Shown here: positions 1 to 51,670 of the stretch, one piece after another | Layout: each line of letters starts with the position of its first letter | Numbering within the stretch: the stretch's first letter is position 1 | Assembly: GCF_003018255.1 (NCBI RefSeq) | Contig: NZ_CP027440.1 | Source: Escherichia coli | GTDB taxonomy: Bacteria > Pseudomonadota > Gammaproteobacteria > Enterobacterales > Enterobacteriaceae | Reading direction: 5' to 3' (one strand) | DNA: 64,000 nucleotides | The notes under the pieces: generated by a model | Seen by the model: only the letters and a program-made list of their open reading frames with translations | What the model was told of the DNA's origin: nothing | Databases searched by the model: none | Made by a program: the position numbers and the translations under genes

Positions 1-39
1 CCTGAACAACTGGCACCTGCTGCGTCACCGGAGAACCCG

Positions 40-312
40 ATGGCGCAACATATAAAATCCCACAATTCTGAAGTCGATCCGGCCATTAAGCGGGGGCGGC
101 GTTCGCACGTATTTAAAACTGACTGGTACCAGCATCCCCCATGCACTGAAGAACAGGCCGAATGGCTGATCCAGTGTTACCGCAGGCGCGGATATGAGTT
201 TGAGAAAGCCCTCAGCCTCGATTATCGTCACTGGATAATCTCCGTCAGGCTCCCTTATTCCGAACGCCCACCGCGTCCGTCCCGCACATTCCAGCAGCGC
301 ATCTGGAGGTAA
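40..312 (+). CDS. hypothetical phage protein (nin region)
   Basis: 90-aa ORF, ATG preceded by GGAGA; lies upstream of rusA/Q in a lambdoid late-regulatory region; no family recognised. Confidence 0.4.
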   Translation: MAQHIKSHNSEVDPAIKRGRRSHVFKTDWYQHPPCTEEQAEWLIQCYRRRGYEFEKALSLDYRHWIISVRLPYSERPPRPSRTFQQRIWR

Positions 313-313
313 C

Positions 314-1363
314 GTGCGGGTATTACTTCGACCTGTTCTGGTACCGGAACTCGGTCTGGTTATCGTTAAGCCAGGCCGTGAATCAATGTCAGCATTCCAT
401 AACGGCAGAATATTGGTGGAGGCGGAACCGAAAAACATGCGCGATCTGCCGTCCGGAGTCGTTCCTGCCGTTCGCCAGCCGCTGGCAGAGGATAAAACAT
501 TACTGCCATTTTTCAGCGATGAGCGGGTTATTCGTGCAGCAGGTGGTGCAGGTGCACTGTCTGACTGGTTATTACGTCACGTGAAATCCTGCCAGTGGCC
601 ACACGGCGATTATCATCACAGCGAAACAGCCATTCACCGTTATGGTACCGGCGCGATGGTGTTGTGCTGGCACTGTGACAACCAGCTGCGCGACCAGACA
701 TCAGAATCACTCGATCAACTTGCTCAGCAGAATCTGGTTGCCTGGATGATTGATGTCATCCGTCACGCAATAAGCGGTACGCAGGAGAGGGAGTTATCGC
801 TGGCCGAATTATCCTGGTGGGCGGCCTGCAATCAGGTGGTGGATGCACTACCTGAGGCAGTAGCGCGTCGTTCGCTGGGATTACCAGCGGAAAAAATCCG
901 CTCCGTATACCGTGAGAGTGACATCGTACCGGGAGAACAGACAGCCATCAGCATACTGAAGCAGCGCACAAAAAATATTGCGCTGCCACTTCACGTCCAC
1001 CAGCAACAAAATCCACCACAGAAAAAAACGGTTGTCAGTATCGCCGTTGATCCGGAGTCTCCTGAATCGTTCATGAGGCGGCCTAAACGTCGCCGTTGGG
1101 TTAATGAGAAATACACGCGCTGGGTAAAGACACAGCCGTGTGCGTGTTGTGGTAAGCCAGCTGACGATCCGCATCACCTGATTGGTCATGGTCAGGGGGG
1201 AGTGGGAACAAAGGCCCACGATATTTTCACGCTACCGTTGTGCCGGGAGCACCACAACGAACTTCATGCAGACCCGCTGAAGTTTGAGAAAAAGTACGGC
1301 TCTCAGATTGAGTTAATTTTTCGTTTTCTTGATCACGCCTTTGCGACTGGCGTGCTCGGGTAA
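314..1363 (+). CDS. DUF968-like phage protein with C-terminal Cys/His (HNH-like) cluster
   Basis: 349-aa ORF, GTG start abutting upstream stop; C-terminus CACCGKP..DPHHLIGHGQ..CREHHNELH resembles YdfU-type proteins that sit beside rusA/Q in lambdoid prophages. Confidence 0.55.
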   Translation: MRVLLRPVLVPELGLVIVKPGRESMSAFHNGRILVEAEPKNMRDLPSGVVPAVRQPLAEDKTLLPFFSDERVIRAAGGAGALSDWLLRHVKSCQWPHGDYHHSETAIHRYGTGAMVLCWHCDNQLRDQTSESLDQLAQQNLVAWMIDVIRHAISGTQERELSLAELSWWAACNQVVDALPEAVARRSLGLPAEKIRSVYRESDIVPGEQTAISILKQRTKNIALPLHVHQQQNPPQKKTVVSIAVDPESPESFMRRPKRRRWVNEKYTRWVKTQPCACCGKPADDPHHLIGHGQGGVGTKAHDIFTLPLCREHHNELHADPLKFEKKYGSQIELIFRFLDHAFATGVLG

Positions 1364-1375
1364 AAGAGGTGACTG

Positions 1376-1738
1376 ATGCTCATAGATTTGGTTTTACCTT
1401 ACCCGCCGACGGTGAACACTTACTGGCGACGCCGTGGCAGCACATATTTTGTATCAAAAGCCGGGGAGCGTTATCGCCGGGCAGTGGCGCTTATTGTTCG
1501 CCAGCAGCGACTGAAATTAAGCCTGTCCGGACGGCTGGCAATAAAAATTATTGCAGAGCCACCGGATAAGCGCCGCCGTGACCTGGACAATATTCTGAAA
1601 GCACCGCTGGATGCGCTGACGCACGCGGGGTTGTTAATGGACGATGAGCAGTTTGATGAAATCAATATTGTACGTGGCAAGCCAGTATCTGGTGGACGGC
1701 TGGAGATAAGAATTACAGAGGTGGGTGTGCATGAATAA
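1376..1738 (+). CDS. rusA: Holliday-junction resolvase RusA
   Basis: 120-aa product of typical RusA length, with acidic DLDN motif; located immediately upstream of Q. Confidence 0.85.
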   Translation: MLIDLVLPYPPTVNTYWRRRGSTYFVSKAGERYRRAVALIVRQQRLKLSLSGRLAIKIIAEPPDKRRRDLDNILKAPLDALTHAGLLMDDEQFDEINIVRGKPVSGGRLEIRITEVGVHE

Positions 1739-2396
1739 CCAGTATTTACAGTTTGTTCGTGAGCAACTCATGATTGCCACTGCGGATCTTAGTGGGTCGA
1801 CAAAAGGCCAGCTGGAAGTCTGGCAGGAAAATGCCCTGTTCGATACAGGGCGTTACAGACGCAAAAAAATTCGTTACCGCGATGAGGTAACCGGAAAAAT
1901 GATCACGCGGGATAATCCCCCGATCCCGGGCAAACAATCACTGGCGAAAGGCTCATCAATTGCCCTGGTCAGTCCGGTTGAGTTTTCGACATCATCATGG
2001 CGACGCGCCGTTCTGTCTCTTGAAGAACATCATAAAGCCTGGCTGCTGTGGTGTTACAGCGGTAGCATTTGCTGGGAGCGTCAGATCGCGATAACGCAGT
2101 GGGCGTGGACTGAATTTAATGCTCAATCCGGTACCAGAAAAATTGCAGGAAAAACTCTGGTGCGCCTGAAGACGTTGATCTGGTTGGCGGCGCAGGCGGT
2201 AAAAGCTGAGTTTTTTGGTGGGGAAGGCTACGAATACCAGGAACTGGCGTTACTGGTGGGAGTAACAACCAAAAACTGGTCCAAGACATTTACTGGTCAC
2301 TGGGTTGCAATGAAACACATTTTTCATCGGCTGGATAGTGAAGCTTTATTGTTGGTGGAGGGAACACGTTCAAAACAAAAGGCGGCATTTTCATAG
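1731..2396 (+). CDS. Q: late-gene antiterminator Q
   Basis: ATG at 1731 overlaps the rusA stop; ~221-aa protein in the canonical Q position, followed by a promoter plus short-transcript terminator (pR'/tR'-like). Confidence 0.7.
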   Translation: MNNQYLQFVREQLMIATADLSGSTKGQLEVWQENALFDTGRYRRKKIRYRDEVTGKMITRDNPPIPGKQSLAKGSSIALVSPVEFSTSSWRRAVLSLEEHHKAWLLWCYSGSICWERQIAITQWAWTEFNAQSGTRKIAGKTLVRLKTLIWLAAQAVKAEFFGGEGYEYQELALLVGVTTKNWSKTFTGHWVAMKHIFHRLDSEALLLVEGTRSKQKAAFS

Positions 2397-2403
2397 CAAA
2401 GTA

Positions 2404-2432
2404 TTGCAAAAGTAGATAAAAAGGCATATATT
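2404..2432 (+). promoter_or_regulatory. candidate late promoter pR' (TTGCAA-17 nt-TATATT)
   Basis: Sigma70-like -35/-10 with 17-nt spacer directly downstream of the Q stop. Confidence 0.5.
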
Positions 2433-2482
2433 TCGTGTAAATCTGATATTTTGCCGTTATTATACGTGATGGCAAAGCCACT

Positions 2483-2509
2483 AAAACCCGTGACCGAGCG
2501 GGTTTTTTA
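2483..2509 (+). terminator. intrinsic terminator (tR'-like)
   Basis: 8-bp stem AAAACCCG/CGGGTTTT with 8-nt loop, followed by T-run; ~50 nt downstream of the candidate pR'. Confidence 0.6.
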
Positions 2510-2649
2510 CCCCCCAAAAAATGGCATAGACATTAAACGTGATGACGATTGTGCCAATACTTTCTCCATCAATGACGCCCCTTGACTGCATGGAATCCAA
2601 TTTGTTATGTAATGTGTGTTGATATTTTTGAGTTGTTAATGGTGTTACT

Positions 2650-3363
2650 ATGGATGACAGTGCTCTGCTCAGAAACTCTTCACTTTTTGTTGCTTATATG
2701 GGCTGTCTCGGATGGGGGAGCGCTTATTTCTATGGATGGGGTACTTCATTTTACTATGGCTTTCCATGGTGGGTTGTCGGGGCTGGTGTCGATGATGTAG
2801 CACGAAGTTTGTTTTATGCTGTGACAGTTATTGTTATATTCCTTATTGGATGGGGAGTTGGTATTGTTTTCTTTTTGGGCATAAAACAAAAGCGCAATAT
2901 ACAAAATTTGAGTTTTATCCGGCTTTTTCTCGCGATATTGCTGCTTTTTATTCCACCTGTTCTGGAGTTTTCTGTAATTCATCAGCATGTTGAGCCAGAT
3001 GTACTGATTTTCTGCGTTCTTGCTGCCTTTGCAATCACGCTTTTTGTCAGGTCTGGAAGAAGACTTGTTTCAGTCAAATGTTTTTCGGAAATGTCTGTTA
3101 TTCGCCATCACCGAATTGAGTTCATGATGGCTGGGTTTATGATTTATTTCTGGGCATTCTCTCTTATTGCCGGTTGGTACAAACCACAGTTTAAGAGGGA
3201 ATATCAGGCGGTCCACTATGAGAATGTATGGTATTACATTATTGCGCGCTATGATGATCGTCTGGTGTTATCGAAATCATACAGGAGTGGGGGTAAGAAA
3301 TTCGTTATATTTAATAGCGGAAATATTAATGATTTTGAAATTAATACTGTCAGAGTACGTTAA
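2650..3363 (+). CDS. polytopic inner-membrane protein, function unknown (cargo gene)
   Basis: 237-aa ORF with several long hydrophobic Trp/Gly/Phe-rich segments; AT-rich; first gene after pR'/tR'. Confidence 0.5.
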   Translation: MDDSALLRNSSLFVAYMGCLGWGSAYFYGWGTSFYYGFPWWVVGAGVDDVARSLFYAVTVIVIFLIGWGVGIVFFLGIKQKRNIQNLSFIRLFLAILLLFIPPVLEFSVIHQHVEPDVLIFCVLAAFAITLFVRSGRRLVSVKCFSEMSVIRHHRIEFMMAGFMIYFWAFSLIAGWYKPQFKREYQAVHYENVWYYIIARYDDRLVLSKSYRSGGKKFVIFNSGNINDFEINTVRVR

Positions 3364-3536
3364 AATTTCCTGAGTAATAAAGATTTTACTGCCCGGCATT
3401 GAGCGGCTTTTTTATGCCAGAAAAATGGTGCAGTACATAAAATGTGCAGGTGGTTATTAATACCGGTCTTTCAGCTTGCTGGCTTTTTTGACAAGAGTTA
3501 TTGGTGTGTCACGTTAACCGGAAAAGGGAAAAAGAC

Positions 3537-3734
3537 ATGCTGAAACAGCAGGATATGACAGAAACCGCCAGAGCAGTTTTTAATGAATTAAGTGCCACCG
3601 AACCGGCGACAGTCGGGGAGATTGCACAGAATACGTACCTTTCACGCGAACGCTGCCAGCTAATACTGACCCAGCTTGTTATGGCGGGTCTGGCAGACTA
3701 TCAGTTCGGTTGTTACAGACGCCTTCAGTCCTGA
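3537..3734 (+). CDS. small putative DNA-binding protein
   Basis: 65 aa from internal ATG of ORF 3501..3734; stop codon embedded in a terminator hairpin; lies upstream of the methyltransferase gene. Confidence 0.4.
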   Translation: MLKQQDMTETARAVFNELSATEPATVGEIAQNTYLSRERCQLILTQLVMAGLADYQFGCYRRLQS

Positions 3735-3746
3735 AGGCTTTTTTAT
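3721..3746 (+). terminator. intrinsic terminator
   Basis: GCCTTCAG-tcc-TGAAGGC stem-loop followed by TTTTTTAT. Confidence 0.6.
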
Positions 3747-3884
3747 TTGTGGTAAATGGGCGGCTGGTGGGGGTTAGGGGCACTCACCAGCCATCTGCTC
3801 ATGCGTCCGGATCACAAGCAAACCTCAGGCCCACTGCTTTGCGCAAAAGCAGAATGAGCCTATCAGAGACAGGCTTAATGATCC

Positions 3885-4943
3885 ATGTTTAATACTGTAA
3901 AAATATCCAGTTGTGAGTTAATCAACGCTGACTGCCTGGAATTTATCCGGTCGTTACCCGAAAATTCTGTTGACCTGATAGTCACGGACCCGCCGTACTT
4001 TAAAGTGAAGCCTGAGGGCTGGGATAACCAGTGGAAGGGCGACGATGACTACCTGAAGTGGCTGGACCTGTGTCTGGCGCAGTTCTGGCGGGTGCTGAAA
4101 CCTGCCGGAAGTCTTTACCTGTTCTGTGGCCATCGCCTGGCATCTGACATTGAAATCATGATGCGTGAACGCTTCAGTGTGCTGAACCATATTATCTGGG
4201 CAAAGCCGTCCGGACGCTGGAACGGGTGCAACAAGGAAAGCCTGCGGGCGTATTTCCCCGCCACAGAGCGCATTCTGTTCGCGGAACATTATCAGGGGCC
4301 GTATCGCCCGAAAGATGCCGGGTATGAGGCGAAGGGCAGGGCACTGAAACAGCATGTGATGGCCCCGCTGATTTCTTACTTTCGTGATGCGCGTGCTGCC
4401 CTGGGGATAACGGCAAAACAGATAGTGGATGCCACAGGAAAGAAAAACATGGTGTCGCACTGGTTCAGTGCCAGTCAGTGGCAGCTACCGAACGAAAGCG
4501 ATTATCTGAAATTACAGGCGCTGTTTGCCCGGGTGGCAGAAGAGAAGCATCAGCGGGGGGAACTGGAGAAGCCCCACCACCAGCTGCTGGAGACGTATAC
4601 TTCACTGAACCGGCAGTATGCGGAACTGCAGAGTGAATATAAGCATCTGCGGCGGTATTTTGGCGTGACGGCGCAGGTGCCGTACACGGATGTGTGGACG
4701 CATAAACCGGTGCAGTACTATCCCGGGAAACATCCGTGCGAAAAACCGGCAGAAATGCTGCAGCAGATAATCAGCGCGAGCAGTCGTCCGGGTGACCTGG
4801 TTGCAGATTTTTTCATGGGGTCGGGTTCGACAGTCAAAGCCGCGATGGCGCTGGGGCGTCGTGCAACTGGCGTTGAGCTGGAGACTGAACGTTTTGAGCA
4901 GACGGTCAGGGAAGTTCAGGATTTAGTCAGTCAGAACGGATGA
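3885..4943 (+). CDS. DNA methyltransferase (N6-adenine/N4-cytosine class, DPPY motif)
   Basis: 352-aa ORF with catalytic DPPY motif (IVTDPPY) and C-terminal AdoMet-binding FxGSGS-like motif (FFMGSGST); no adjacent restriction gene seen. Confidence 0.85.
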   Translation: MFNTVKISSCELINADCLEFIRSLPENSVDLIVTDPPYFKVKPEGWDNQWKGDDDYLKWLDLCLAQFWRVLKPAGSLYLFCGHRLASDIEIMMRERFSVLNHIIWAKPSGRWNGCNKESLRAYFPATERILFAEHYQGPYRPKDAGYEAKGRALKQHVMAPLISYFRDARAALGITAKQIVDATGKKNMVSHWFSASQWQLPNESDYLKLQALFARVAEEKHQRGELEKPHHQLLETYTSLNRQYAELQSEYKHLRRYFGVTAQVPYTDVWTHKPVQYYPGKHPCEKPAEMLQQIISASSRPGDLVADFFMGSGSTVKAAMALGRRATGVELETERFEQTVREVQDLVSQNG

Positions 4944-4983: not shown

Positions 4984-5059
4984 GGCCCTTTAGCTCAGTG
5001 GTGAGAGCGAGCGACTCATAATCGCCAGGTCGCTGGTTCAAATCCAGCAAGGGCCACCA
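4984..5059 (+). tRNA. tRNA with CAT anticodon, ileX-like (tRNA-Ile2, lysidine) rather than Met
   Basis: 76-nt cloverleaf folded by hand: acceptor GGCCCTT/AAGGGCC, anticodon loop CTCATAA, T-loop TTCAAAT, 3' CCA encoded; close to remembered ileX sequence. Confidence 0.8.
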
Positions 5060-5068
5060 TATCACATA

Positions 5069-5145
5069 CCGCCATTAGCTCATCGGGATAGAGCGCCAGC
5101 CTTCGAAGCTGGCTGCGCGGGGTTCGAGTCCTCGATGGCGGTCCA
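5069..5145 (+). tRNA. tRNA-Arg (anticodon TCG)
   Basis: 77-nt cloverleaf: acceptor CCGCCAT/ATGGCGG, anticodon loop CTTCGAA, T-loop TTCGAGT, CCA encoded; 9 nt after the first tRNA. Confidence 0.75.
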
Positions 5146-5423
5146 TTATCTGCATTATGCGTTGTTGGTTCTGATGAGTGAATCATTGTCTTTTGAGCAA
5201 CAGGCTATCATATAAGATAGCCTCAGACTTCCTTGTTTATTCTCGCCGGATGCTTCGTAGATATTTGCAGGCATCTGTATGCAGGGGTATTATTGCGGCA
5301 TATATCATCCGGAAAAATAAAAACTACATGCTGATCCGGAGATGATAGTTACAAGTCCTCCCGGATCCCGCATATTTACTATATTTTATAGATAATTGTT
5401 CTTGTTAATATGGAGATGGATAA

Positions 5424-5852
5424 ATGTATTGCCGTGCTGTACCTGTTCTTGTTTTGATATTAGCCAGTCTGACAACTGGCTGCACAAAAGATGTATCGAC
5501 AAATAATCATGATGCTTCTCTGTATCACTCAGATAAATTAATAACGTCGCAAAAATTGAGCTCATCGGAACGTACCCCTGATGCCAGTGAAGAAATCCGG
5601 CAGTATGCCATTCAGGTCAGGAAAGCCATAGAAGAACAGTTAAAGGATGCGAGTAAGTATTCAGGAAAAGAGTGTTCACTGAGAATGTATATGGCCCCGA
5701 ATGGTCTTCTGCTACGGGTTAAAAGAGAAAGCGGTGATCCCGATTTATGTCGTGAAGCGATGAATGCAGTAAAGAATGCTGATATACCATCACCACCGTC
5801 TTCAGGAGTATATAAAGCATTTAGAAATGGCGTGCTGGATTTTAAACTCTGA
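5424..5852 (+). CDS. lipoprotein with TolA C-terminal (domain III)-like domain
   Basis: Signal peptide ending in LTTGC lipobox-like motif; C-terminal ~85 aa (GKECSLRMYMAPNGLLLRVKRESGDPDLCREAM..IPSPPSSGVYKAFRNGVLDFKL) aligns with remembered E. coli TolA C-terminus; GGAG RBS. Confidence 0.75.
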   Translation: MYCRAVPVLVLILASLTTGCTKDVSTNNHDASLYHSDKLITSQKLSSSERTPDASEEIRQYAIQVRKAIEEQLKDASKYSGKECSLRMYMAPNGLLLRVKRESGDPDLCREAMNAVKNADIPSPPSSGVYKAFRNGVLDFKL

Positions 5853-5987
5853 CAGGGGGAGAAGATTTTCTCCTGTCCTGATGATTTTGGGGCGCTGGAA
5901 AGATATTGTGCTGTGAAGTGTTAAATCCCTCACAATTCAGTAAGTTGACAGTTGCCTGTCAGACTGAGCATTTGTTAAAAAAATTTC

Positions 5988-6165
5988 GCATGGTGAATCC
6001 CCCTGTGCGGAGGGGCGACTGGTGAACGGTATGATCTCTTTGATGATCGTAAGCGAGAATACGCGGGTTTGGTGTCACCGGGCTGAACTCACCGGGAGGC
6101 ACCCGGCACCATGCTCATGGTGATACAGAAATGCGGCTTCAGCCCCTCTCCGGAGGGGCTTTCTT
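5988..6165 (+). ncRNA. candidate structured sRNA, repeat family A copy 1
   Basis: Promoter-like TTGCCT-18-TAAAAA, then 5' CAUGGUG, hairpin CCCCU-GUGCGG-AGGGG, hairpin CCGGG-AGGCA-CCCGG, 3' CACCAUG pairing back to the 5' end, and terminator GCCCCTC-TCCG-GAGGGGC plus T-run. Confidence 0.45.
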
Positions 6166-6171
6166 ATGGAC

Positions 6172-6240
6172 AAAAAAAGCCCGCGCTGGGAGACGCGGGC
6201 GGCAAGGAATAAACAATAAAACGTGAAGTAATACTTCAAC
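6172..6240 (-). ncRNA. candidate antisense sRNA, family B copy 1
   Basis: Minus-strand TTGCGC-18-TATTAT promoter (plus 6247-6276), ~70-nt transcript with internal hairpin GAAGT-ATT-ACTTC, ending at terminator GCCCGCG..CGCGGGC plus T-run. Confidence 0.45.
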
Positions 6241-6312
6241 TGGCGAATAATACCCGACAGTAATCACTCTGCGCAATAGCGTGGCCTTTTTCGAATTGCG
6301 GGCTGTAGTCTC

Positions 6313-6484
6313 CCTTCTGCCGGGTGTCCTGGTTGCAGATTTCTTCATGGGGTAGGGTTCGGCAGTTAAAGCAGCGATGGTGCTGGGGCGTCGTGCAACT
6401 GGCGTTGAGCTGGATACCGGGCGTTTTGAACAGACTGCGCAGGAAATCAGGGATGTATTTAGCGGGAGCGGTTTGCAGAAGTAA
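6313..6484 (+). pseudogene. 3' fragment of a DNA methyltransferase gene (duplicate of the 4781-4943 region, in-frame TAG)
   Basis: ~170 nt nearly collinear with the 3' end of the intact methylase gene (DLVADFFMG..GRRATGVEL..), interrupted by a stop; lacks the 5' 90% of the gene. Confidence 0.7.
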
Positions 6485-6547
6485 TCTCCCAAAATGCCAT
6501 TTTTGGAATATACTGGTATTAAGTCTTTTTGCTCAGGTTAATTCAAA

Positions 6548-7273
6548 ATGGATGTTGCCTGCTCTGTGGTCCTGATTCGCTATCCGATAGATATTTTTCT
6601 TGAAAAAGAAAAAGTTTCACTCGATGCCGGAAGTGTTATGCTTGTTGCCAGAAATATAAGAGGGCTTTTCTGTGCTTATGCCGACAGAGTGAAAATGGCA
6701 GATATAAGTAACAGCGTCGTCAATCAGTATCTGGAAAGGGAGTGTGAACTGACGGAGTATACACCGACAAAAATGCCTCTTTATTTGATGTCTGATATTT
6801 ACAATACGGAACTGGCGGAGGCTTTAATAACCCAGCATAGTGAATCCAGTGATACTTTGAAGGATTTCTCTGTTATAACCGCATTTTCATGTATCTCCTT
6901 ATTTGCAACAGACAGACGTCTGCCATTATTTTTGTCCGGTGCTGTAAATAATATCAGCTGTAAAGTAAGGGCTATAATTCAGACCGACATATCGGCAGGC
7001 TGGATGCTTGGTGTGATTGCATTACAATTGCATATGAGCGAAAGCTTGTTGAAGCGAAAACTTAAGGATGAAGGTTATAGCTTTAGTCGGTTGTTGCTGG
7101 AGGAGCGAATGCGTGTTGCTGTTAATCTTGTATGTTTCCAGCGAGAGTGTGGACAAGCGATAGCGGAAAAATGTGGTTACTCAAGTAAGTCCTACTTCAT
7201 TTCTGTATTTCACCAGTATTATGGTGCACCACCTGAGAGCTATGCATATTTGCAGAAAGCAGACGTTATCTGA
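6548..7273 (+). CDS. AraC/XylS-family transcriptional regulator (cargo gene)
   Basis: 241-aa ORF with C-terminal dual helix-turn-helix typical of AraC family (..LKDEGYSFSRLLLEERMRVA..IAEKCGYSSKSYFISVFHQYYGAPPESY); start codon uncertain. Confidence 0.7.
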   Translation: MDVACSVVLIRYPIDIFLEKEKVSLDAGSVMLVARNIRGLFCAYADRVKMADISNSVVNQYLERECELTEYTPTKMPLYLMSDIYNTELAEALITQHSESSDTLKDFSVITAFSCISLFATDRRLPLFLSGAVNNISCKVRAIIQTDISAGWMLGVIALQLHMSESLLKRKLKDEGYSFSRLLLEERMRVAVNLVCFQRECGQAIAEKCGYSSKSYFISVFHQYYGAPPESYAYLQKADVI

Positions 7274-7362
7274 TGTTTTTTCATCAGGCATATATTGATT
7301 GACTGTATTAGATATAGTCTGAATGTGTTCAGCATAAAAAGTTATAATCATTTGGTGTTTGC

Positions 7363-7641
7363 GTGAATATTGATGAGAAAATCAGATGTAGCCAACTGTT
7401 ACAGCGTATTGAAGCCGTCAATGTGGAACGAACAAAGGTCTTCAGTCGTCTGACAGTTTTATTTTGTACCCCTGATCGACGTTCAGGTCAGGAGATGGTT
7501 CTTCTGGATGTAGATGCACTTCGGAACGTCTGTGAGGAGTTCACCGCGGCTAATTCGGAGTTACTGAGTCTTGTTCAGGAGTACAACAGAATTGCAGGTA
7601 GTAACGGTTTTGATGAAATCAAAATTATATCCCGTGGATAA
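7363..7641 (+). CDS. hypothetical protein
   Basis: 92-aa ORF with GTG start 15 nt downstream of a perfect TATAAT; no family recognised; weak RBS. Confidence 0.3.
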   Translation: MNIDEKIRCSQLLQRIEAVNVERTKVFSRLTVLFCTPDRRSGQEMVLLDVDALRNVCEEFTAANSELLSLVQEYNRIAGSNGFDEIKIISRG

Positions 7642-7899
7642 AACATATCCTGTATATTTATGTTGTTACATACAGGCGCTTTTAGTATCTGCCGCACGGC
7701 AGTTGTACTTCAGAATAAGATGCTTTTGTGACTGGTGGTGTTGTATCTGGGGTTAGCCAGTAGGCAGGTTCAGAGAGTCCGGTGGTAATTATGTGTATGC
7801 AGTGGTTGTTGCTGTACCGTGGGCAAGTTCTGGAACTGGCTTCGTCCATTGTAGATGATTGTTAGCTGGATATCAGTTACCTCATGGAAATGTTAAATG

Positions 7900-31234: not shown

Positions 31235-32398
31235 ATGAAAAAAATGACAGTGGCACTTTCTGCTGTAGCAGTTGCAGTGATGTTTGCTGCGGGGGCGCAG
31301 GCAGCAGAAGTTTATAATAAAGATGGTAATAAACTGGATCTTTACGGGCGTGCAACCGCTCTGCATTACTTCTCGGATGATAAAGGTAATGACGGAGATC
31401 AGACTTATGCTCGTCTCGGCTTTAAAGGCGAAACGCAGATTAATGATCAACTGACCGGATTTGGTCAGTGGGAATACCAGTTCTCTGGTAACAAAACGGA
31501 ATCTGAAGGTTCCGCGGGAAATAAAACCCGTCTGGCATTTGCAGGTCTGAGATTTGCTGATGTTGGTAGCATTGATTACGGACGTAACTACGGTATTGCT
31601 TACGATGTCGGATCATATACTGACGTACTGCCAGAGTTTGGTGGTGATGGCTGGACTCAGACCGATAACTTTATGACTGCCCGAACTTCCGGAGTTCTGA
31701 CTTACCGTAATACAGATTTCTTTGGGCTGGTTGATGGTCTGAATTTTGCGGCGCAGTATCAGGGCAAAAATGAGCGCGATGACCTCCAGAAGGCCAATGG
31801 TGATGGGTATGGTTTCTCAGCCAGCTATGAGTTTGATGGTTTTGGTTTTGTGGCTGCGTATACCAAGTCAGATCGTACCAATAAGCAGGTTCAGGGACTG
31901 AATGGTAGCAAAACTATTGAAATCAAAGATCCTTTAACTGGGGATGTGACTGAAAAAGAAGTGGTCGTTGATTCCGGCAGCGTTGCAAAAGGTAAACATG
32001 CTGAATTCTGGGGAACTGGTCTTAAATATGATGCCAATAACCTGTATCTGGCAGCAGTGTATTCAGAAACCCAGAATATGACGACCTTTGGTGATCAAGG
32101 TGTTGCGGATAAAGCTCAGAATATCGAAGCCGTTGTTCAGTATCAGTTTGATTTTGGTCTGCGTCCGTCTCTGGCCTACCTTCAGTCCCGAGGACAGGAT
32201 GTTATGGTTGGTGGTGTGAACCATGGCGATCAGGATCTGGTTAAATATATTGATGTCGGTGCGACTTATTACTTTAACAAGAATATGTCCACCCATGTTG
32301 ATTATAAAATTAACCTGATTGAGGAAAGTGAATTTACCCGGAAAGCCGGTGTTGCGACAGATAATATCGTTGCTGTGGGTATGACTTATCAGTTCTGA
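31235..32398 (+). CDS. OmpC/NmpC/Lc-family general porin (cargo gene inside tail operon)
   Basis: 387 aa, signal peptide ..[20 protein letters not shown].., C-terminal ..GMTYQF; very AT-rich upstream leader; own terminator. Confidence 0.9.
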
Positions 32399-35450: not shown

Positions 35451-35513
35451 CCGGGGTGCCTGTTGTTTTTGGGCATAAACAGATTCAGACATCAGACAGG
35501 AGAGGGGGACAGA

Positions 35514-38500
35514 GTGGGTAAAGGGGGCGGCAAGGGGCACACACCGCGTGAGGCGAAGGACAATCTCAAATCCACGCAGATGATGAGCGTGATTGATGCC
35601 ATCGGTGAGGGACCGGTGGAAGGCCCGGTGAAGGGACTGCAGAGTATTCTGGTGAACAAAACCCCGCTGACGGACACGGACGGTAATCCCGTGATACACG
35701 GTGTGACCGCCGTCTGGCGTGCCGGGGAGCAGGAGCAGACACCGCCGGAAGGCTTTGAGTCCTCCGGGGCGGAAACCGCACTGGGTGTGGAGGTGACGAA
35801 GGCAAAGCCGGTGACGCGCACCATCACGTCAGCGAACATTGACCGTCTGCGGGTCACCTTCGGGGTGCAGTCACTGGTGGAGACCAGCTCAAAGGGTGAC
35901 CGTAATCCCTCTTCTGTCCGGCTGCTGATTCAGCTTGAGCGTAACGGTAACTGGGGGACGGAGAAGGATGTCACCATTAACGGCAAGACCACCTCGCAGT
36001 ACCTGACGTCGGTGATTCTGAATAATCTCCCTGAGCGCCCCTTTAACATCCGGATGGTCAGGGTGACGGCGGACAGTACCACGGACCAGCTGCAGAACAG
36101 AACGCTGTGGTCGTCATACACCGAAATCATCGATGTGAAACAGTGCTACCCGAACACGGCCATTGTGGGGCTGCAGGTGGATGCGGAGCAGTTCGGTGGC
36201 CAGCAGATGGTGGTGAACTACCATATCCGCGGCCGCATCATTCAGGTGCCGTCAAACTATGACCCGGAAAAACGCACCTACAGCGGTATCTGGGACGGGA
36301 GTCTGAAACCGGCATACAGCAATAACCCGGCCTGGTGCCTGTGGGACATGCTGACCCACCCGCGCTACGGCATGGGAAAACGCCTGGGGGCGGCGGATGT
36401 GGACAAGTGGGCACTGTATGCCATCGGGCAGTACTGTGACCAGACGGTCCCGGATGGTTTCGGGGGCACAGAGCCGCGGATGACTTTCAATGCGTACCTG
36501 TCACAGCAGCGTAAGGTCTGGGATGTCCTGGGGGATTTCTGCTCGGCGATGCGCTGTATGCCGGTATGGAACGGCCAGACGCTGACGTTCGTTCAGGACC
36601 GTCCGTCGGATGTGGTGTGGCCGTACACCAACAGCGATGTGGTGGTGGATGATAACGGCGTGGGGTTCCGCTACAGCTTCAGTGCCCTGAAGGACCGGCA
36701 CACGGCGGTGGAGGTGAATTACACCGACCCGCAGAACGGCTGGCAGACTTCCACGGAACTGGTGGAAGACCCGGACGCCATCCTGCGCTACGGGCGCAAC
36801 CTGCTGAAGATGGACGCGTTCGGCTGTACCAGCCGCGGTCAGGCTCACCGTGCCGGACTGTGGGTGATAAAGACCGAACTGCTGGAAACGCAGACGGTGG
36901 ATTTCACGCTCGGGTCTCAGGGGCTGCGGCACACGCCCGGTGACATCATTGAAATCTGTGATAACGACTATGCCGGGACCCTGACCGGCGGACGCATCCT
37001 GTCCATTGATGCCGCCAGCCGCACACTGACGCTGGACCGTGAGGTGACACTGCCTGAGACAGGTACATCGACGGTGAACCTGATTAACGGCAGCGGTAAG
37101 CCGGTGCGCGTGGACATCACTGCACACCCCGCCCCTGACCGGATACAGGTCAGCGTCCTGCCTGATGGCGTGGCGACATACGGTGTGTGGGGACTCTCCC
37201 TGCCGTCACTGCGTCGTCGCCTGTTCCGCTGTGTTTCCATCCGGGAAAACACGGACGGCACCTTTGCCATCACGGCGGTGCAGCACGTACCGGAAAAAGA
37301 AGCCATTGTGGATAACGGGGCCCGCTTTGAGCCTATGTCCGGTTCACTGAACAGCGTCATCCCGCCGGCGGTGCAGCACCTCACGCTGGAGGTGAGCGCC
37401 TCAGACGGCCAGTATCTGGCGCTGGCGAAATGGGACACGCCGCGGGTGGTGAAGGGCGTGCGCTTCAGTCTGCGCCTGACCAGCGGAAACGGTGAAAACA
37501 GCCGCCTGGTGACCAGCGCCATCACGGCGGACACGGAGTACCGTTTCAGTGGCCTGCCGCTCGGGGAATACACCCTGACGGTCAGGGCGATAAACAGCTA
37601 CGGCCAGCAGGGCGAACCTGCCACCACCACATTCCGGATTAATGCACCGGCGGCACCGGCCAGCATTGAACTGACGCCGGGGTATTTTCAGATAACGGTG
37701 GTCCCGCATCCTGCGGTGTATGACCCGACGGTACAGTCTGAATTCTGGTTCTCAGAAAAACGCATCACGGACACGGCACAGGTGGAAACCTCTGCCCGTT
37801 ATCTGGGGACAGGCAGTCAGTGGAGTGTCTCCGGCCCGCACATTAAGCCCGGGAAGGATTTCTGGTTTTATGTGCGCAGCGTCAACCTGGTGGGGAAATC
37901 TGCGTTTGTGGAGGCCAGCGGGCAGGCCAGCAATGATGGTGAAGGGTATCTGGAAATTTTCCGTGGGCTGATAGATGAGGCGCAGCTGGGGAAGGCACTG
38001 AAAGAGCGTATTGATGCGTCAGCCCTGCGTACTGATGTCACGCAACTGGAAGAAGATATCCGCCAGCGACTGGAGACGGATGTTGCGGAAGTGACCCGAA
38101 AAATCGGGGAGGCGGAAAACAGCCTCACGCAGCTGGTTGCGAAAAAGAATGAGGACCAGACGCTGGCCATCGCGCAGGTGAGTCAGCAGGTGGACCGGGT
38201 GAGCAGTGAAATCACACAGACAGTCAGCCAGAGCACGGAGGAAAACGCCAGGCAGATAGCGCAGGTCCGCCAGTACGTGGATGACAAAGGGAGTGAAATC
38301 ACCTCGACCACGGATAAAAAGCTGGAAGACCAGAGCGCGACCATACAGCAGATACAGCAGGTCCAGTCAGACACGAATGATGAGCTGGCTGCGCTGTACA
38401 TGCTGAAGGTGCAGAAAACGAAAAACGGCATTCCGTATGTTGCCGGTATTGGTGCGGGGATTGAGGATGCTGATGGCCAGACGCTGAGCAATATTCTGCT

Positions 38501-39200
38501 GCAGGCGGACCGTATCGCAATGATTACCCCGGAGAACGGCAACACCACGCCGCTGTTTGTGGCACAGGGGAATCAGCTGTTCATGAACGACGTGTTCCTG
38601 AAGCGACTGTTTGCGGTGAGTATCACGTCATCCGGCAATCCCCCGACGTTTTCCCTGACGCCGGACGGCAGGCTGACGGCCCGCAATGCGGATATCAGCG
38701 GACATATCAGTGCGAACTCGGGCACGCTCAATAATGTCGTGATAGCGGAGAACTGTACGATAAATGGCACGCTGAAAGCGGAGAACATTATTGGTGATCT
38801 GGTGAAATGTGCAGGGGTGGCTTTTCCGGTGGATGGTAGTTACCTTGCGAACGGTACACGGACGCTGACGGTGTATGACGATCACAGCTTTGACCGGCAG
38901 ATTATAATCCCGCCGATAATCTATGTCGGGTCAAAACAGGAATCCCGCACCAGTAATGACATCTGGACAGAGTGCTTCCTGCATGTTGATCAGAACGGAC
39001 GCCGGATTTATTCAGGCAGGTCAGTGGCAGAGCCGGGAATTTTCAGCGGGATCATCGATATGCCAGCTGGCGGTGGTCATATCACCCTGAGTTTTACCGT
39101 GAGCTCACGGCGTCAGAATAACAGTTGGGGCAGTTCACGAATCAGTAACCTTCAGGCGATAGTGGTGAAGAAAAACAGCGCGGGGATCAGCATCCGCTGA
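35514..39200 (+). CDS. J: central tail fibre / host-specificity protein J
   Basis: GTG start ([20 protein letters not shown]..) after GGAGAGGGGGA RBS; collinear with remembered lambda J for most of its length, with an extra coiled-coil-like insertion (~38.0-38.4 kb). Confidence 0.9.
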
Positions 39201-39398
39201 ACATCGCGCCCCGGGATTGCCGGAAGGAGACAAAAACCGTACAGTATGCGCGGGTGCCTTTGGCTGATGGCCGGAGGGAACACCTGAAGGCCGGATGTGA
39301 AAAGGCCCCGGACAAAACATTCATGTTTAACCCGAGGCCTGACCATTCATCCTAAGCAAGTGAAAGGTTAGCGCCTCTCCGTAAAAGGAGCAAGCGTT

Positions 39399-39539
39399 AT
39401 GTCGCAAAAACCGTTAAAAACCACCGTGATTTGTATCACGGTAGTGCTCATTATCTGGATCACCCACACTTCACTGTGCGAGTTCCGGTTCCGGATAGCG
39501 GGCGCGGAGATTGCGGCGTTCTTACAGTGTAAGCGGTAA
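39399..39539 (+). CDS. Hok/Gef-family type I toxin (46 aa)
   Basis: MSQKPLKTTVICITVVLIIWITHTSLCEFRFRIAGAEIAAFLQCKR: N-terminal TM helix and conserved SLCE..R...EIAAF motif; AAAGGAG RBS; below ORF-track size cutoff. Confidence 0.7.
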   Translation: MSQKPLKTTVICITVVLIIWITHTSLCEFRFRIAGAEIAAFLQCKR

Positions 39540-39636
39540 GAAACCGTGGCGGGGGAGTGTACCTTCCCCGCCGACCGGTTGCTGAGGGTGATCAGCCGGA
39601 TGGCACCTTTTTAACATCAATAAATCACAAATTTTA

Positions 39637-39670
39637 CCGCAGGCCGGGAAACCGGTCCTGCGGTTTTTTT
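39637..39670 (+). terminator. intrinsic terminator after hok-like locus
   Basis: CCGCAGGCCGG-GAAA-CCGGTCCTGCGG followed by TTTTTTT. Confidence 0.55.
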
Positions 39671-39683
39671 ATGGAGGAAATCC

Positions 39684-40952
39684 ATGGCAGTCAGAATATC
39701 GGGTGTGCTGAAGGACGGGGCCGGTAAGCCGGTACCGGGATGCACGATAGAGCTGAAAGCGCGACGCACAACGGAGACGGTGATTGTCACCACGGTGGCG
39801 TATGGTCAGCCGGGGGAAACCGGCAGTTACAGTATGGATGTTGAGCCGGGTCTGTACCGGGTGACGCTGAACACGGAAGGGTACGCGCCGTCATATGTGG
39901 GTGACATTCTGGTGAAGGCGGACTCTGCACCGGGAACGCTGAATAAATTTCTGATGGACCTGGAGGACGCACAGTATTACCCGAAAGCCCTTGCAGAGCT
40001 GGAAGCGGTGGCCGCGGAAATCCTGAAACGTGCGGAAGCGTCAGCGGCGAGTGCAGAGGAAGCGAAGAAACGGGCAGAGAATGCGCGGGGACCGAAGGGG
40101 GATAAGGGAGACACCGGGCCACAGGGTATTCCCGGGCCAAAAGGCGATACCGGCGAGCGTGGGCCAAAGGGTGAGCGTGGTGAGGCAGGCCCACAGGGGG
40201 TACAGGGGCCACGGGGTGAAACCGGACCCGTGGGACCGCAAGGAGAGGCGGGTATTCAGGGGCCTGCTGGTCCTGCGGGCCCGCGAGGTGAAACCGGAGC
40301 CAGAGGCGAAAAAGGAGAGCCGGGAGATCCCGGAGGACCTCCGGGACCAAAAGGTGACACTGGCCCCAGAGGGGAGCCGGGGCCTCAGGGCCCGGCAGGT
40401 CCGAGGGGACCTGCCGGAGAGAGAGGGCCGCAAGGATTGCAGGGTGTGGCAGGGGAGAGAGGCGATACAGGTCCGGCTGGCCCACAGGGTATACCTGGAC
40501 CTCCGGGGCCAACAGGTAGCGTCGGTCCTAAGGGGGAAAAAGGCGAGCCTGGTGATCGAGGTCCACAGGGTGCTACCGGCCCCAGAGGACCACAAGGGGA
40601 AAAAGGGGATAAAGGTGACCCCGGCCCGGCAGGCCCTGCCGGTGAGCGGGGGCCGAAAGGTGATACCGGGCCGACGGGCCCCGCAGGGAAGGATGGCGCA
40701 GATTCACAGGCGAACAGAGTGCGTATCAGCGAGAAAACAGAAGTCACCTCCAGCACAGTCGTTTTCCCCTCTTTTTATGGCGGTGCGCAGGGGGAAAATG
40801 CAGCCCCTGAGGGCGCTGTGATTCTGAATATCAGGACGGCTCCGGTATCACTGACGAACGGCAATTTAGGGGCAGCCTGTGTCACCGCTGTCACTTACGG
40901 CTTCCTTCAGGTTCATGATGGCAGCCAGTGGGTTACGGTGGAACATGAATAA
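39684..40952 (+). CDS. side tail fibre protein with collagen-like Gly-X-Y region
   Basis: N-terminus [26 protein letters not shown].. like lambda Stf; ~200 residues of uninterrupted G-X-Y triplets (nt ~40080-40700); short C-terminal domain. Confidence 0.8.
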
Positions 40953-41020: not shown

Positions 41021-41692
41021 ATGAATCTTAAAAATCTGCAACGTTATACTCCTGAGAAGTCGGATGTTCCGGGGGCAATGTACCTGAAGGCAGAGGATGG
41101 CCGTGACTGGTATGAAAGCCAGTCGTCATTTAAGGCGGATACGCTGAAGCTGGTTTATGACAGCGAAGGCATAATCACGAGTATCAGTAAGGATGTGTCG
41201 ATGCTGTGGCCAGTGGGACAGAGTGTGGTGGAGGTTGAGGATACAGAAGAAAACCGCAAAGCTGATATCTCCGGGCGCTGGAAGTTTGACGGGGAAAAAG
41301 TCGTTGATACTCTGACCGCGGAGAAAGCGCGCGGGATGAAGGGCGATGAAATAAACGCGTGGCGTAATGCGATGGAGGCGGCGAACTACACGTTTGAGCA
41401 CAATGGCCGGAAATGGGACTACGGAAAGTCAACGCAGACGCGTCTTGAGCCATCGGTGGCGGCAGCGAAAGCGGGGAAACTGCCGGAGGCGTTTTTCTGG
41501 ACGGATGCGGAAAACAATGATGTACAGGTGACAGCAGAAGAGCTTATTGCGCTGAGTGAAGCGGCAGAGCAGGCGATGTTCAGCAAAGGGATGGAAATCC
41601 ACATTCGCCAGCGCACCATGAAGAAGGACCTGGAATCGCTGAGCAGTGCGGATGAGATCCTGGTATACAGGGTTGGCTGGGCACAGGAATAA
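41021..41692 (+). CDS. tail fibre assembly protein
   Basis: 223 aa; N-terminus MNLKNLQRYTPEK..DGRDWYES..ADTLKLVYDSEGIITSI.. resembles Tfa-family chaperones. Confidence 0.7.
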   Translation: MNLKNLQRYTPEKSDVPGAMYLKAEDGRDWYESQSSFKADTLKLVYDSEGIITSISKDVSMLWPVGQSVVEVEDTEENRKADISGRWKFDGEKVVDTLTAEKARGMKGDEINAWRNAMEAANYTFEHNGRKWDYGKSTQTRLEPSVAAAKAGKLPEAFFWTDAENNDVQVTAEELIALSEAAEQAMFSKGMEIHIRQRTMKKDLESLSSADEILVYRVGWAQE

Positions 41693-42099: not shown

Positions 42100-42660
42100 T
42101 TAAAACCGCATCAACCGTTCTACCAGTTGTTCTTTACGGGCAACGATCCAGCCGTGTTGCTCCAGATAAAATTTAAACCGCTCCAGAGTGCATACCATCG
42201 CATCGGCGGGGACTTTTTCTGTGAACTCTACCTGACCGTGTTTATCAAAGTGGATCAGTAATGCGCATCCATCATTTGGGGTGGGGGAGTTTTGTGTTGC
42301 TGGTGGTTGTTTATGGCTGAAATAACAGTCTTCCAGTTTTTCGAACACTTCCCACGCCTGATCGGTTTCGAGCATTTTTGCATGGCGGGCAGCGCCACGT
42401 TCTGTCCAGAGGATAAGGGAGCGGGCATTTTTACCAACTAACCCGATTGTTTCGGGTCTGTTCTTAAACTCGCGTAATTCGTTTTTTTCAATTTTAAAGT
42501 AATGCTTTCCTACCACGAATCGCGTCGTGTTGTTCAGAAAGTTATCAGAAATGTTTTTGATTTTTGTTCCGTATAACTGCGCCAGAAGTTCAGTTGTAAT
42601 AACGGGGATCTGGTTGTGGGTGATTGCAGGAAGAGTGTCGACAGAAATTTGAGTGGTCAT
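42100..42660 (-). CDS. ORF6N/KilA-N-like DNA-binding protein (putative antirepressor-like regulator)
   Basis: 186 aa from ATG at 42660 with GGAG RBS; N-terminal ..ITHNQIPVITTELLAQLYGTKIKNISDNFLNNTTRFVVGKHYFKIEKNELREF..; last prophage gene before attR, antisense to late genes. Confidence 0.5.
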   Translation of the reverse strand: MTTQISVDTLPAITHNQIPVITTELLAQLYGTKIKNISDNFLNNTTRFVVGKHYFKIEKNELREFKNRPETIGLVGKNARSLILWTERGAARHAKMLETDQAWEVFEKLEDCYFSHKQPPATQNSPTPNDGCALLIHFDKHGQVEFTEKVPADAMVCTLERFKFYLEQHGWIVARKEQLVERLMRF

Positions 42661-43130
42661 AACGATAACTCCGTACATTTGAAAATTATCGCCACCTTCA
42701 GGTTCCAATCATCATGGTGGCGAACTGTGCGGGGTTGGAACTACCGGGTACGGAAACCGGCGAGCCTTTCGGCTCCCCCACACAGCCCGCCATAAATCGC
42801 GAATGTGACTGTGCAAACGATATGAAAAAAGACGCGGGCGCGTCTCATATCGCTCCGTAAACATCCGGGGTTCCAATCCCGACGCCAGATTTTGCTGACG
42901 CGTTGGAAATATAGCCCCGGAGGATAAAAACTGTCAACGGGTAAAAAAATTTCCGTTATCAGGAATGTATAAAATTAAAGCAATCGAGCAAAAAAACTCT
43001 CTGCAAAACTAAAAAAGATCTCAATAAAATCAGGCAGTTAAAAACACGGAAAAACGGTATAAAAAAGCATCTCAAAATCCTGTTTTTTCTTTCAGATACA
43101 ATATGTTATTGCATTTTTTAAAACCTGCCA

Positions 43131-43247
43131 GTCTGGTACATGGATATTGATACCACTGCCAATTATAAACTGGGCGGTGCACAGCAACACGATAGCGTAC
43201 GCCTCGATCCGTGGGTGTTTATGTTCTCAGCAGGATATCGTTTTTAA
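43131..43247 (+). other. ompW: ompW 3'-end fragment (..VWYMDIDTTANYKLGGAQQHDSVRLDPWVFMFSAGYRF*), probable attR / integration-site remnant
   Basis: In-frame translation matches remembered OmpW C-terminus only from ~43131 onward; upstream DNA is phage-like; next gene is yciE as in the E. coli ompW neighbourhood. Confidence 0.55.
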
Positions 43248-43305
43248 TTCCGCACAAAAATGACCCCGTAATTACGGGGTCAATAAGGACATGGTATAAA
43301 GGGTA

Positions 43306-51555: not shown

Positions 51556-51582
51556 AAAAAAAAGCCCGCTCATTAGGCGGGC
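51556..51582 (-). terminator. trp attenuator terminator
   Basis: Minus-strand AGCCCGCCTAATGAGCGGGCT hairpin followed by T8, between trpL and trpE. Confidence 0.85.
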
Positions 51583-51625
51583 TGGGTATCTGATTGCTTT
51601 ACGCATGGTGAATACACTGCCCGTT

Positions 51626-51670
51626 TCAGGAAGTGCGCCACCAACCTTTCAGTACGAAAATTGCTTTCAT
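51626..51670 (-). CDS. trpL: trp operon leader peptide ([14 protein letters not shown])
   Basis: 14-codon ORF with tandem Trp codons read directly from the minus strand. Confidence 0.85.

Follow-up and report, generated by a model that had tools for sequence, protein, structure and literature searches.

A collagen-like side tail fibre gene in an Escherichia coli lambdoid prophage, its natural length alleles and the exchange of its C-terminal modules

We analysed a stretch of 64,000 nucleotides (nt) from Escherichia coli (contig NZ_CP027440.1, assembly GCF_003018255.1; hereafter the window), in which one gene codes for a phage fibre with a long collagen-like region. The gene very probably encodes the side tail fibre of a lambdoid prophage of the HK97-head, lambda-tail type, inserted in ompW of a Shiga-toxin-type E. 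coli lineage, a fibre working by the domain mechanism set out below. By its sequence the product is assigned to the 'EHEC prophage collagen-like proteins' EPclA-D (EPclPs; Ghosh et al. 2012, PLoS One 7:e37872, PMC3368898), nearest to the EPclC and EPclD variants without a PCoil. Comparison of natural alleles shows both in-register changes in the length of the collagen-coding DNA and swaps of C-terminal modules within it. A first-pass annotation of the window had described a lambda Stf-like fibre with an unusually long collagen-like tract and had not recognised this class, which was recognised in the 2012 paper. The features of the gene and its surroundings are collected in Table 1.

The EPclP architecture consists of PfN (PF08400), an optional PCoil, a collagen domain (Col) and then PfC (PF06820) or another C-terminus (PMC3368898). 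The PCoil is a low-complexity coiled coil of about 88-116 amino acids (aa) between PfN and Col in EPclA, EPclB and EPclD, its absence is usual for EPclC, and both PfC and PCoil are trimerisation modules (PMC3368898). EPclA has been shown by circular dichroism, analytical ultracentrifugation and electron microscopy to form a trimeric, thermostable collagen triple helix, which is dumbbell-shaped and about 50-62 nm long (PMC3368898). The window protein has the lambdoid prophage tail-fibre position, the PF08400 domain, the collagen composition and the GDPGGPPG interruption of this class. It contains no PCoil, as its collagen begins at aa 136.

The lambda Stf-like N-terminal anchor and the side tail fibre identity proposed in the first-pass annotation are supported by the following matches. 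The phage_tail_N family (PF08400) matches aa 1-134 over its full profile length (E 1.8e-42; 145 bits, cut-off 26.6). The protein is 52% identical to lambda orf-401/Stf over aa 1-129, and in this comparison the similarity ends at aa 129. In a phmmer search aa 1-91 match the PDB entries 9e7m/9mgh, 'Tail fiber protein' (Ur-lambda gpStfN), with an E-value of 3.3e-30. Against PHROGs the protein matches phrog_366, tail fiber protein (E 6.8e-116). In Ur-lambda, Stf residues 1-91 form a beta-sheet-plus-helix collar domain, of which 12 copies encircle the tail at the gpV/gpM junction (gpStfN). A flexible linker spans residues 92-101, and a trimeric coiled-coil shaft begins at residue 102, with four trimeric fibres per virion (PMC12617516). 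The linker and helix boundaries given here were inferred from that structure description (PMC12617516); the segment aa 102-135, of ~33 residues, is probably a trimeric coiled coil. The collagen tract starts right after the end of PF08400, and the 116-aa PCoil of EPclA is absent. The open reading frame (ORF) is intact, with a GGAGG ribosome-binding site 7 nt 5' of its ATG.

A regular expression search of the translation, together with PF01391, places the Gly-X-Y tract at aa 136-340 (nt 40089-40703). It comprises 205 residues in 68 triplets, close to the ~200 residues at about nt 40080-40700 given earlier, and is the sole such tract in the window. With the Gly content of the neighbouring J protein (8.6%) as background, the chance of finding Gly at 68 fixed positions is ~1e-72 (log10 P about -72). 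The triplets had been called uninterrupted, but one extra Pro (aa 220) within GDPGGPPG shifts the Gly-X-Y register and splits the tract into 28 and 40 triplets. A single conserved G-X-P-G-G-P-X-G interruption is found in the long or first collagen domains of EPclPs (PMC3368898); here it is a possible kink or hinge. The X positions are occupied by Pro (46%) and Asp/Glu (37%) and the Y positions by Lys/Arg (34%), Ala (16%), Gln (16%) and Thr (15%); the tract has no aromatic residues or Cys. EPclP collagen domains are likewise Pro- and Asp/Glu-rich at X and Lys/Arg/Ala/Gln/Thr-rich at Y (Pro 48%, Asp/Glu 36%, Lys/Arg 31%; Table 4 of PMC3368898), and lack Cys, Phe, His, Trp and Tyr (PMC3368898).

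The description of the tract as unusually long holds relative to EPclA, whose collagen has 63-144 aa, but the 322 aa published for Stx2-86_gp21 and a 107-triplet tract in a fibre of E. coli CFSAN027350 (L013, see below) are longer. EPclP collagen domains range from 27 to 322 aa, and copies differ by multiples of three residues (PMC3368898). At 0.286 nm per residue the rod of the window protein would be ~59 nm long. The predicted shaft, comprising the rod and the short coil, is of the same order of length as the PCoil plus Col of EPclA, and the long collagen may compensate for the missing PCoil.

The short C-terminal domain noted in the first-pass annotation is present as 82 aa placed directly after the last Gly-X-Y triplet, the position of PfC. 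These residues have no match in Pfam even at E <= 10, with PF06820 (Phage_fiber_C) among the families not matched, and none in PHROGs; BLASTP against the PfC of EPclA found nothing. A word-index search returned E. coli fragments only. An exhaustive phmmer search over 1.84 billion representative proteins found one true relative (P0005, 56% identical), which also follows a collagen tract; a second match was a spurious repeat protein. By eye, the pattern '...GAVI..I...VTY..LQV..DGSQW.TV' is common to the C-termini of the window protein and of the phage 1720a-02 fibre, and the latter in turn resembles the PfC of EPclA. Profile-profile comparison aligns the window type with the 1720a-02/P0075 type (89.5%, E 2e-6, 69 columns) and the 1720a-02 type with canonical PfC (89.3%, E 2e-6, 68 columns), in both cases with very shallow profiles (Neff 1.3). 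None of 200 column-shuffled controls reached the observed score of 34.1 (mean 10.6, maximum 19.8). The merged alignment of the window type, the intermediate and PfC is collinear over its whole length, and R, G, LQ and W are invariant in it. A search with the joint profile brings back window-type, intermediate and PF06820 proteins together, all from Escherichia, and the matches with more N-terminal sequence show collagen before the domain. Structure prediction, which the first-pass annotation had proposed, gives a fold that resembles phage fibre tips (AlphaFold2 monomer, pLDDT 73). The C-terminus thus appears to be a remote, uncatalogued branch of the PfC-like fibre-end domains; this superfamily relation is probable rather than proven, because the profiles have very little depth and a monomer was modelled.

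Comparing tract length among related prophages had also been proposed. We compared the fibre gene by megablast with 5,426 complete E. coli genomes. Matches were found in 192 of these, 56 of them near full length and annotated 'prophage tail fiber N-terminal domain-containing protein'; every close match lies on an E. coli chromosome. The gene is intact and has the window length of 1269 nt in 43 genomes, it is 81 nt shorter in 11, 63 nt shorter in one, and 1 nt shorter with a frameshift in one. In four further genomes only nt 1-980 are shared, and this part is shorter by 72 or 162 nt. Together these alleles encode 50-68 triplets. Five variant alleles (L001-L005) were retrieved, which are near-identical to the window gene (98-99.5%), and their missing segments are given in Table 1. 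The allele of UC4224 (L004) also has one extra 9-nt unit at 40594, duplicating GDK, at the tandem stretch detected by Tandem Repeats Finder (TRF). An exact-sequence cluster look-up of the window protein and three of the alleles found none of them in the protein collection.

The first-pass annotation held that the triplet DNA is internally repetitive, so that the fibre could change length by slippage or recombination. Length change is supported by the in-frame alleles of -63, -81 (two different), -162 and +9 nt, all at short direct repeats. The support comes from this comparison and not from repetitiveness of the DNA, which holds only weakly. TRF reports only two 22-nt stretches of period 9 in the gene, of which one is a real tandem stretch. 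The dispersed repeats in the gene are 60-75% identical and spaced by multiples of 9 nt, and the longest exact direct repeat in the tract is 12 nt. The tract does contain more repeated 9-mers (28) than blocks of the same size from gene J (0-7), but shuffling synonymous codons with the protein kept unchanged yields 25.6 +/- 8.1, so that the observed values lie in the middle of the null distribution. The four Gly codons are used almost evenly in the tract, and the shuffles show no sign of codon choice suppressing or enhancing DNA repetitiveness. The tract DNA is repetitive just as a Gly-X-Y protein requires and does not form an array prone to slippage; a classical tandem repeat of that kind was rejected, as neither TRF nor the repeat search found an array.

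The missing segments of the short alleles are not tandem copies of their neighbours. The window gene is therefore either the long form, from which the others are deletions, or a long form rebuilt by recombination between them. All in-frame length changes that survive are multiples of 9 nt, as expected under purifying selection for a triple helix of any kind that still works. The length changes are microhomology-type events, real but evidently infrequent.

Exchange of C-terminal modules is shown more directly by these data than the host-range variation that the first-pass annotation put forward as plausible. Many relatives of the gene match it at 84-98% identity over its first 444, 524 or 980 nt and differ from it after that point, and all three breakpoints lie inside the collagen-coding DNA. 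Past the breakpoint, L004, L005 and L011 carry a Gp53-like_C receptor-binding end and an extra small Tfa, and L007, L009 and L012 have other tips together with a Pf2 repeat and a second collagen domain. The segment that contains the interruption (40193-40366) has ~85% DNA identity to the L013 fibre gene; collagen blocks are therefore exchanged between otherwise unrelated fibre genes. The tract acts as a crossover linker for C-terminal modules. The same crossover and modularity interpretation has been offered for EPclPs (Ghosh et al.; PMC3368898), and collagen-like repeats in the antireceptors of Streptococcus thermophilus phages are cited as recombination hotspots.

Two observations on these relatives stand beside the exchange itself. 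The L013 fibre (L013 1551-3572, 673 aa) is of the EPclD type and a relative of Stx2-86_gp21; it has an unrelated N-terminus, a tract of 48 and 59 Gly-X-Y triplets that likewise contains the GDPGGPPG interruption, and a C-terminal end like the S74-type intramolecular chaperones. The same fibre allele as in the window is found in other strains in a prophage next to tRNA-Ser/hyaA (L006) and not in ompW, and the fibre module therefore travels between prophages at different sites.

We propose that three chains form one fibre. The first 91 residues of each chain would fold as an Stf collar domain, for which homology is shown, and may assemble as in Ur-lambda, with 12 copies and four fibres. The 10-residue linker and the ~33-residue helical segment would join the three chains, and the 68 Gly-X-Y triplets would then form a collagen triple helix of ~59 nm, on the model of EPclA. 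The GGP-P register break, 24 nm from the start of the rod, is a likely flexible point. The 82-residue beta domain would nucleate trimerisation and form the tip, which may bind the receptor itself or dock the DUF4376/Tfa-like protein encoded downstream. Per codon, a collagen rod extends about twice as far as a coiled coil, and here it would take the place that the PCoil has in EPclA and the long coiled coil in lambda Stf. At the DNA level the many in-register direct repeats of 9-12 nt allow occasional microhomology-mediated in-frame deletions and duplications in 9-nt units, and they serve as crossover points for the C-terminal module swaps, as the natural alleles show.

Several points weigh against this account. 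The triple helix, the trimer and the virion location of this particular protein are all argued from homology. The full window-type allele is in no record of a collection of 50,697 phages, so it is unseen on a virion; the isolated phages 1720a-02 and PhiR5/PhiR12 have the same N-terminal module and the start of the collagen. A direct hhalign comparison of the window-type C-terminus with canonical PfC gives a probability of 0.4%, again without a PF06820 match, and the AlphaFold2 model of the tip is a monomer of only moderate confidence. The gene is preceded by a hok/sok locus and by a terminator-like hairpin with a T-run (39645-39660) just 5' of the start codon, so that expression of the fibre would depend on read-through of the late transcript. 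Lastly, the DNA is no more repetitive than the protein requires and contains no tandem array, so length change is probably rare and not a high-frequency switch.

The length variants may be neutral by-products, the tract being a passive spacer and recombination linker and specificity being set entirely by the C-terminal module and the downstream chaperone or adhesin. We give this somewhat better than even chances, and it is not exclusive of the proposed mechanism, which already includes it. It agrees with the relatives that keep the N-terminal module and part of the tract and switch to unrelated C-termini (Gp53-like_C, Pf2 with a second collagen, S74-type) at breakpoints in collagen DNA, and with the like reading of modularity by Ghosh et al. 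(PMC3368898) and the hotspots cited for S. thermophilus phages. It leaves unexplained the narrow band of rod lengths, 50-68 triplets, within the allele group.

A selected role for length is unlikely. The collagen tract would then be a contingency-type device, frequently resized so that the fibre reaches receptors through O-antigen or capsule layers, as a host-range mechanism. At least four in-frame deletions and one 9-nt duplication among genes of 98-99.5% identity all keep the Gly-X-Y register, which fits such a device, but purifying selection, acting on any functional collagen, would account for the kept register equally well. The DNA has no tandem array, no exact repeat above 12 nt and the repetitiveness of its synonymous shuffles, and change is rare, with 43 of the 56 near-full-length copies intact at one length. 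A direct precedent for a change in length altering host range is found only outside the phages of bacteria, in the Guarani virophage, where an 81-nt deletion in a collagen-like gene (ORF8) accompanies host-range expansion.

It is also rather improbable that the 82-aa domain is only a trimerising docking knob, the real adhesin being the DUF4376 protein, with the rod as an evolvable ruler that sets the distance of the adhesin and its penetration of polysaccharide. The C-terminal 120 residues of the DUF4376 protein hardly vary among prophages whose fibre ends are very different. If it were true, rod length would be a genuine heritable host-range parameter in relatives of Shiga-toxin phages.

That the prophage encodes no virion part here but a collagen mimic for the bacterial surface or for secretion, serving as an adhesin or virulence factor in the manner of streptococcal Scl or Bacillus BclA, is very improbable and was rejected: Shiga-toxin-producing lineages carry the gene, other collagen-like proteins of bacteria act as adhesins (PMC3368898) and there is a weak PDB match to BclA through the collagen part only, but the N-terminus is an Stf collar domain that binds the phage tail, it is not signal peptide-like, and the gene lies in the tail operon between gpJ and the Tfa-like gene. 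It is equally hard to credit that the tract length is an assembly or annotation artefact, which the first-pass annotation had named as grounds for refutation, or that the gene is a remnant in decay; assembly can go wrong in repetitive DNA rich in G+C, a G-run carries a frameshift in one relative and several defective EPclP copies are listed by Ghosh et al. (PMC3368898), but the ORF is intact, it has no long repeats to confuse assemblers, and the identical 1269-nt length in 43 other complete, independently finished genomes rules out an artefact.

Among known proteins the closest likeness is to EPclC and EPclD, for example P-EibA ORF-401 and Stx2-86_gp21. These share with the window protein PF08400, the lack of a long PCoil, the single interruption, the preferences at X and Y, a non-PfC C-terminus and the location in a lambdoid prophage. 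P-EibA ORF-401, an example of EPclC, is 83.5% identical over aa 1-182. It has two collagen domains split by Pf2, whereas the window protein has one continuous collagen domain (84+1+120 aa) without Pf2, and the C-terminal 82 aa of the window protein are of a different subtype, uncatalogued in Ghosh 2012, Pfam and PHROGs. EPclA (for example ECs2717 of O157:H7 Sakai), about 59% identical at the N-terminus, shares PfN, a collagen triple helix (inferred for the window protein) and a small C-terminal trimerising beta domain (predicted for the window protein). It differs in its 116-aa PCoil, its 63-144 aa of collagen and its PfC, which matches PF06820 at E 1e-36.

The Stf of Ur-lambda resembles the window protein in its collar domain, its linker, the start of its helical shaft and a gene order of J, a small moron, stf and a tfa-like gene. 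It continues into a 292-residue coiled-coil shaft, a hinge and a gp37-like distal domain that binds OmpC, in place of which the window protein has a collagen shaft and an unrelated 82-aa tip. The long coiled coil, Pf2 repeats and gp37-like domain of the lambda Stf shaft are all absent from the window protein, which has no PF03406 match. As the tip is unrelated to the gp37-like domain of lambda, the receptor cannot be inferred from it.

The antireceptors of S. thermophilus phages and ORF8 of the Guarani and Sputnik virophages are alike in that repeats coding for Gly-X-Y are sites of deletion or module exchange in an attachment protein. The 81 nt lost in the Guarani host-range mutant are equal in size to two of the deletions found here. 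These are unrelated proteins of unrelated viruses, with true tandem units of 27 nt and a link to host range tested by experiment, neither of which applies to the window gene. Another collagen rod with a C-terminal beta cap is that of BclA in Bacillus anthracis, in which the number of triplets varies between strains and sets the length of the surface filaments, and the C-terminal beta domain trimerises. BclA is an exosporium protein and not phage-borne; it is glycosylated and has GPT-rich true tandem repeats and a TNF-like C-terminal domain. The PDB entry 1wck (BclA) is a weak match to the window protein through the collagen part only.

According to the annotation of near-identical regions, the fibre gene lies towards the right end of a lambdoid prophage that is integrated in ompW. 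There gpJ (35463-39200) is followed by hok/sok, the fibre gene, the DUF4376 gene, an ORF6N antirepressor-like gene with C4 and isrK RNAs, and then yciEFG-trp. An ompW remnant is annotated in the near-identical region of strain 05-3629. The yciE/F/G genes and the trp operon follow the prophage, and a Trp leader is detected by Rfam; these features of the insertion site concern window positions of about 43120-43250 and 51556-51649 (minus strand). At the right end of the prophage (42100-42901, minus strand) is a P1/P7-style immunity module.

The 223-aa product of the downstream gene appears tail-fibre-assembly-like in its N-terminal half and contains DUF4376 (PF14301) in its C-terminal half. It scores 19.8 bits on Caudo_TAP (PF02413), below the cut-off of 22.1, it matches phrog_11571 over its full length, and aa 1-107 match phrog_136, 'tail fiber assembly protein' (E 4.8e-37). 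The protein is in two parts: the C-terminal ~120 aa are nearly invariant across L001, L004, L007, L009, L011 and L012, whose fibre ends differ, and the N-terminal ~100 aa occur in at least two unrelated versions among the prophages compared.

The hok/sok type I toxin-antitoxin locus (39252-39676, plus strand) lies between gpJ and the fibre gene, in the slot that holds lom in lambda and in sister prophages. A permissive Rfam search matches sok RNA at 39252-39410 (51 bits, E 1.6e-10), below the gathering score of 59; at the gathering threshold Rfam finds nothing between J and the fibre gene.

A complete porin gene of 387 aa lies inside the tail cluster (31235-32398, plus strand; PF00267, E 5e-143) and is annotated 'porin OmpC' in 05-3629. 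Because the receptor of lambda Stf is OmpC, a phage-borne OmpC paralogue near an Stf-type fibre could be a receptor-replacement or exclusion moron. Elsewhere in the window (4984-8910, plus strand) a tRNA-Met (4984-5059) and a tRNA-Arg (5069-5145) precede five full-length copies of STnc100, a small RNA of Rfam.

As predicted in the first-pass annotation, the triplet DNA is a source of spurious antisense ORFs. Antisense ORFs of 241, 184 and 123 aa and an off-frame sense ORF of 263 aa overlap the fibre gene. The collagen-coding DNA has 68% G+C, and because T makes up only 9% of its bases, three of the five non-coding frames have no stop codon over the 615-nt tract, which accounts for these ORFs. 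None of them matches a family in Pfam. In lambda the antisense orf206b, within the low-complexity part of orf-401 (L010 1248-1868, minus strand; NC_001416), is still listed in the reference annotation and is probably the same kind of spurious ORF.

Table 1. Position of the fibre gene, its parts, its natural variants and neighbouring features in the window
Feature	Position	Strand	Basis or remarks
Side tail fibre gene, EPcl-type collagen-like prophage fibre	39684..40952	+	422 aa plus stop; ORF list, PF08400 + PF01391, phrog_366
Stf-type collar (virion attachment) domain, aa 1-91	39684..39956	+	phmmer match to 9e7m/9mgh
Linker (aa 92-101) and short Ala/Glu-rich helical segment (aa 102-135)	39957..40088	+	aligned to lambda Stf residues 92-129
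Collagen segment 1, 28 Gly-X-Y triplets, aa 136-219	40089..40340	+	regular expression, PF01391
GDPGGPPG, aa 214-221, single one-residue interruption	40323..40346	+	regular expression; matches EPclP motif
Collagen segment 2, 40 Gly-X-Y triplets, aa 221-340	40344..40703	+	regular expression
162 nt (18 triplets) absent in EH53 (L005)	40397..40558	+	6-nt exact microhomology AGGTCC
81 nt (9 triplets) absent in isolate 07-4299 (L001)	40401..40481	+	junction at imperfect repeat CCGGC[A/T]GG[T/C]CC
Run of four G; three G in JNE151685, a frameshifted pseudogene annotated as frameshifted	40405..40408	+	alignment
81 nt (9 other triplets) absent in 00-3076 (L003) and UC4224 (L004)	40479..40559	+	junction at repeat GG[C/T]CCACAGGGT
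63 nt (7 triplets) absent in 2013C-4282 (L002)	40533..40595	+	flanked by exact 11-nt direct repeat GGGGAAAAAGG
Only real tandem stretch, period 9, 2.4 copies, GEK-GDK-GD	40594..40615	+	TRF
Small all-beta C-terminal domain (predicted), 82 aa, aa 341-422; putative remote PfC-like trimerisation or tip domain	40704..40949	+	
Downstream partner gene, 223 aa, tail-fibre-assembly-like and DUF4376 halves	41021..41692	+	PF14301, E 6.5e-17
Hok/Gef ORF, 46 aa	39399-39539	+	PF01848, E 6e-11
STnc100 copies	5959-6171, 7931-8126, 8190-8399, 8460-8659, 8721-8910	+	last four tandem, about 265 nt apart
ORF6N antirepressor-like ORF	42100-42708	-	PF10543, E 2e-20
C4 antisense RNA	42713-42797	-	directly upstream of ORF6N ORF
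isrK	42825-42901	-	directly upstream of ORF6N ORF

For annotation, these results show that collagen-coding DNA yields long false ORFs in three other frames, and that in-register length alleles and G-run frameshifts of fibre genes in finished genomes are not to be taken for assembly errors. Pfam and PHROGs overlook a whole subgroup of probable PfC-like fibre tips. This subgroup, the mapped natural deletion, duplication and frameshift alleles and the probable replacement of a coiled coil by the long collagen are modest additions. Current understanding is unchanged: the class of 2012, with one member characterised biochemically, is extended by one architecture and a handful of natural alleles. 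Such fibres decide which E. coli cells lambdoid prophages adsorb to, relatives of Shiga-toxin phages among them, and they therefore bear on the spread of virulence genes.

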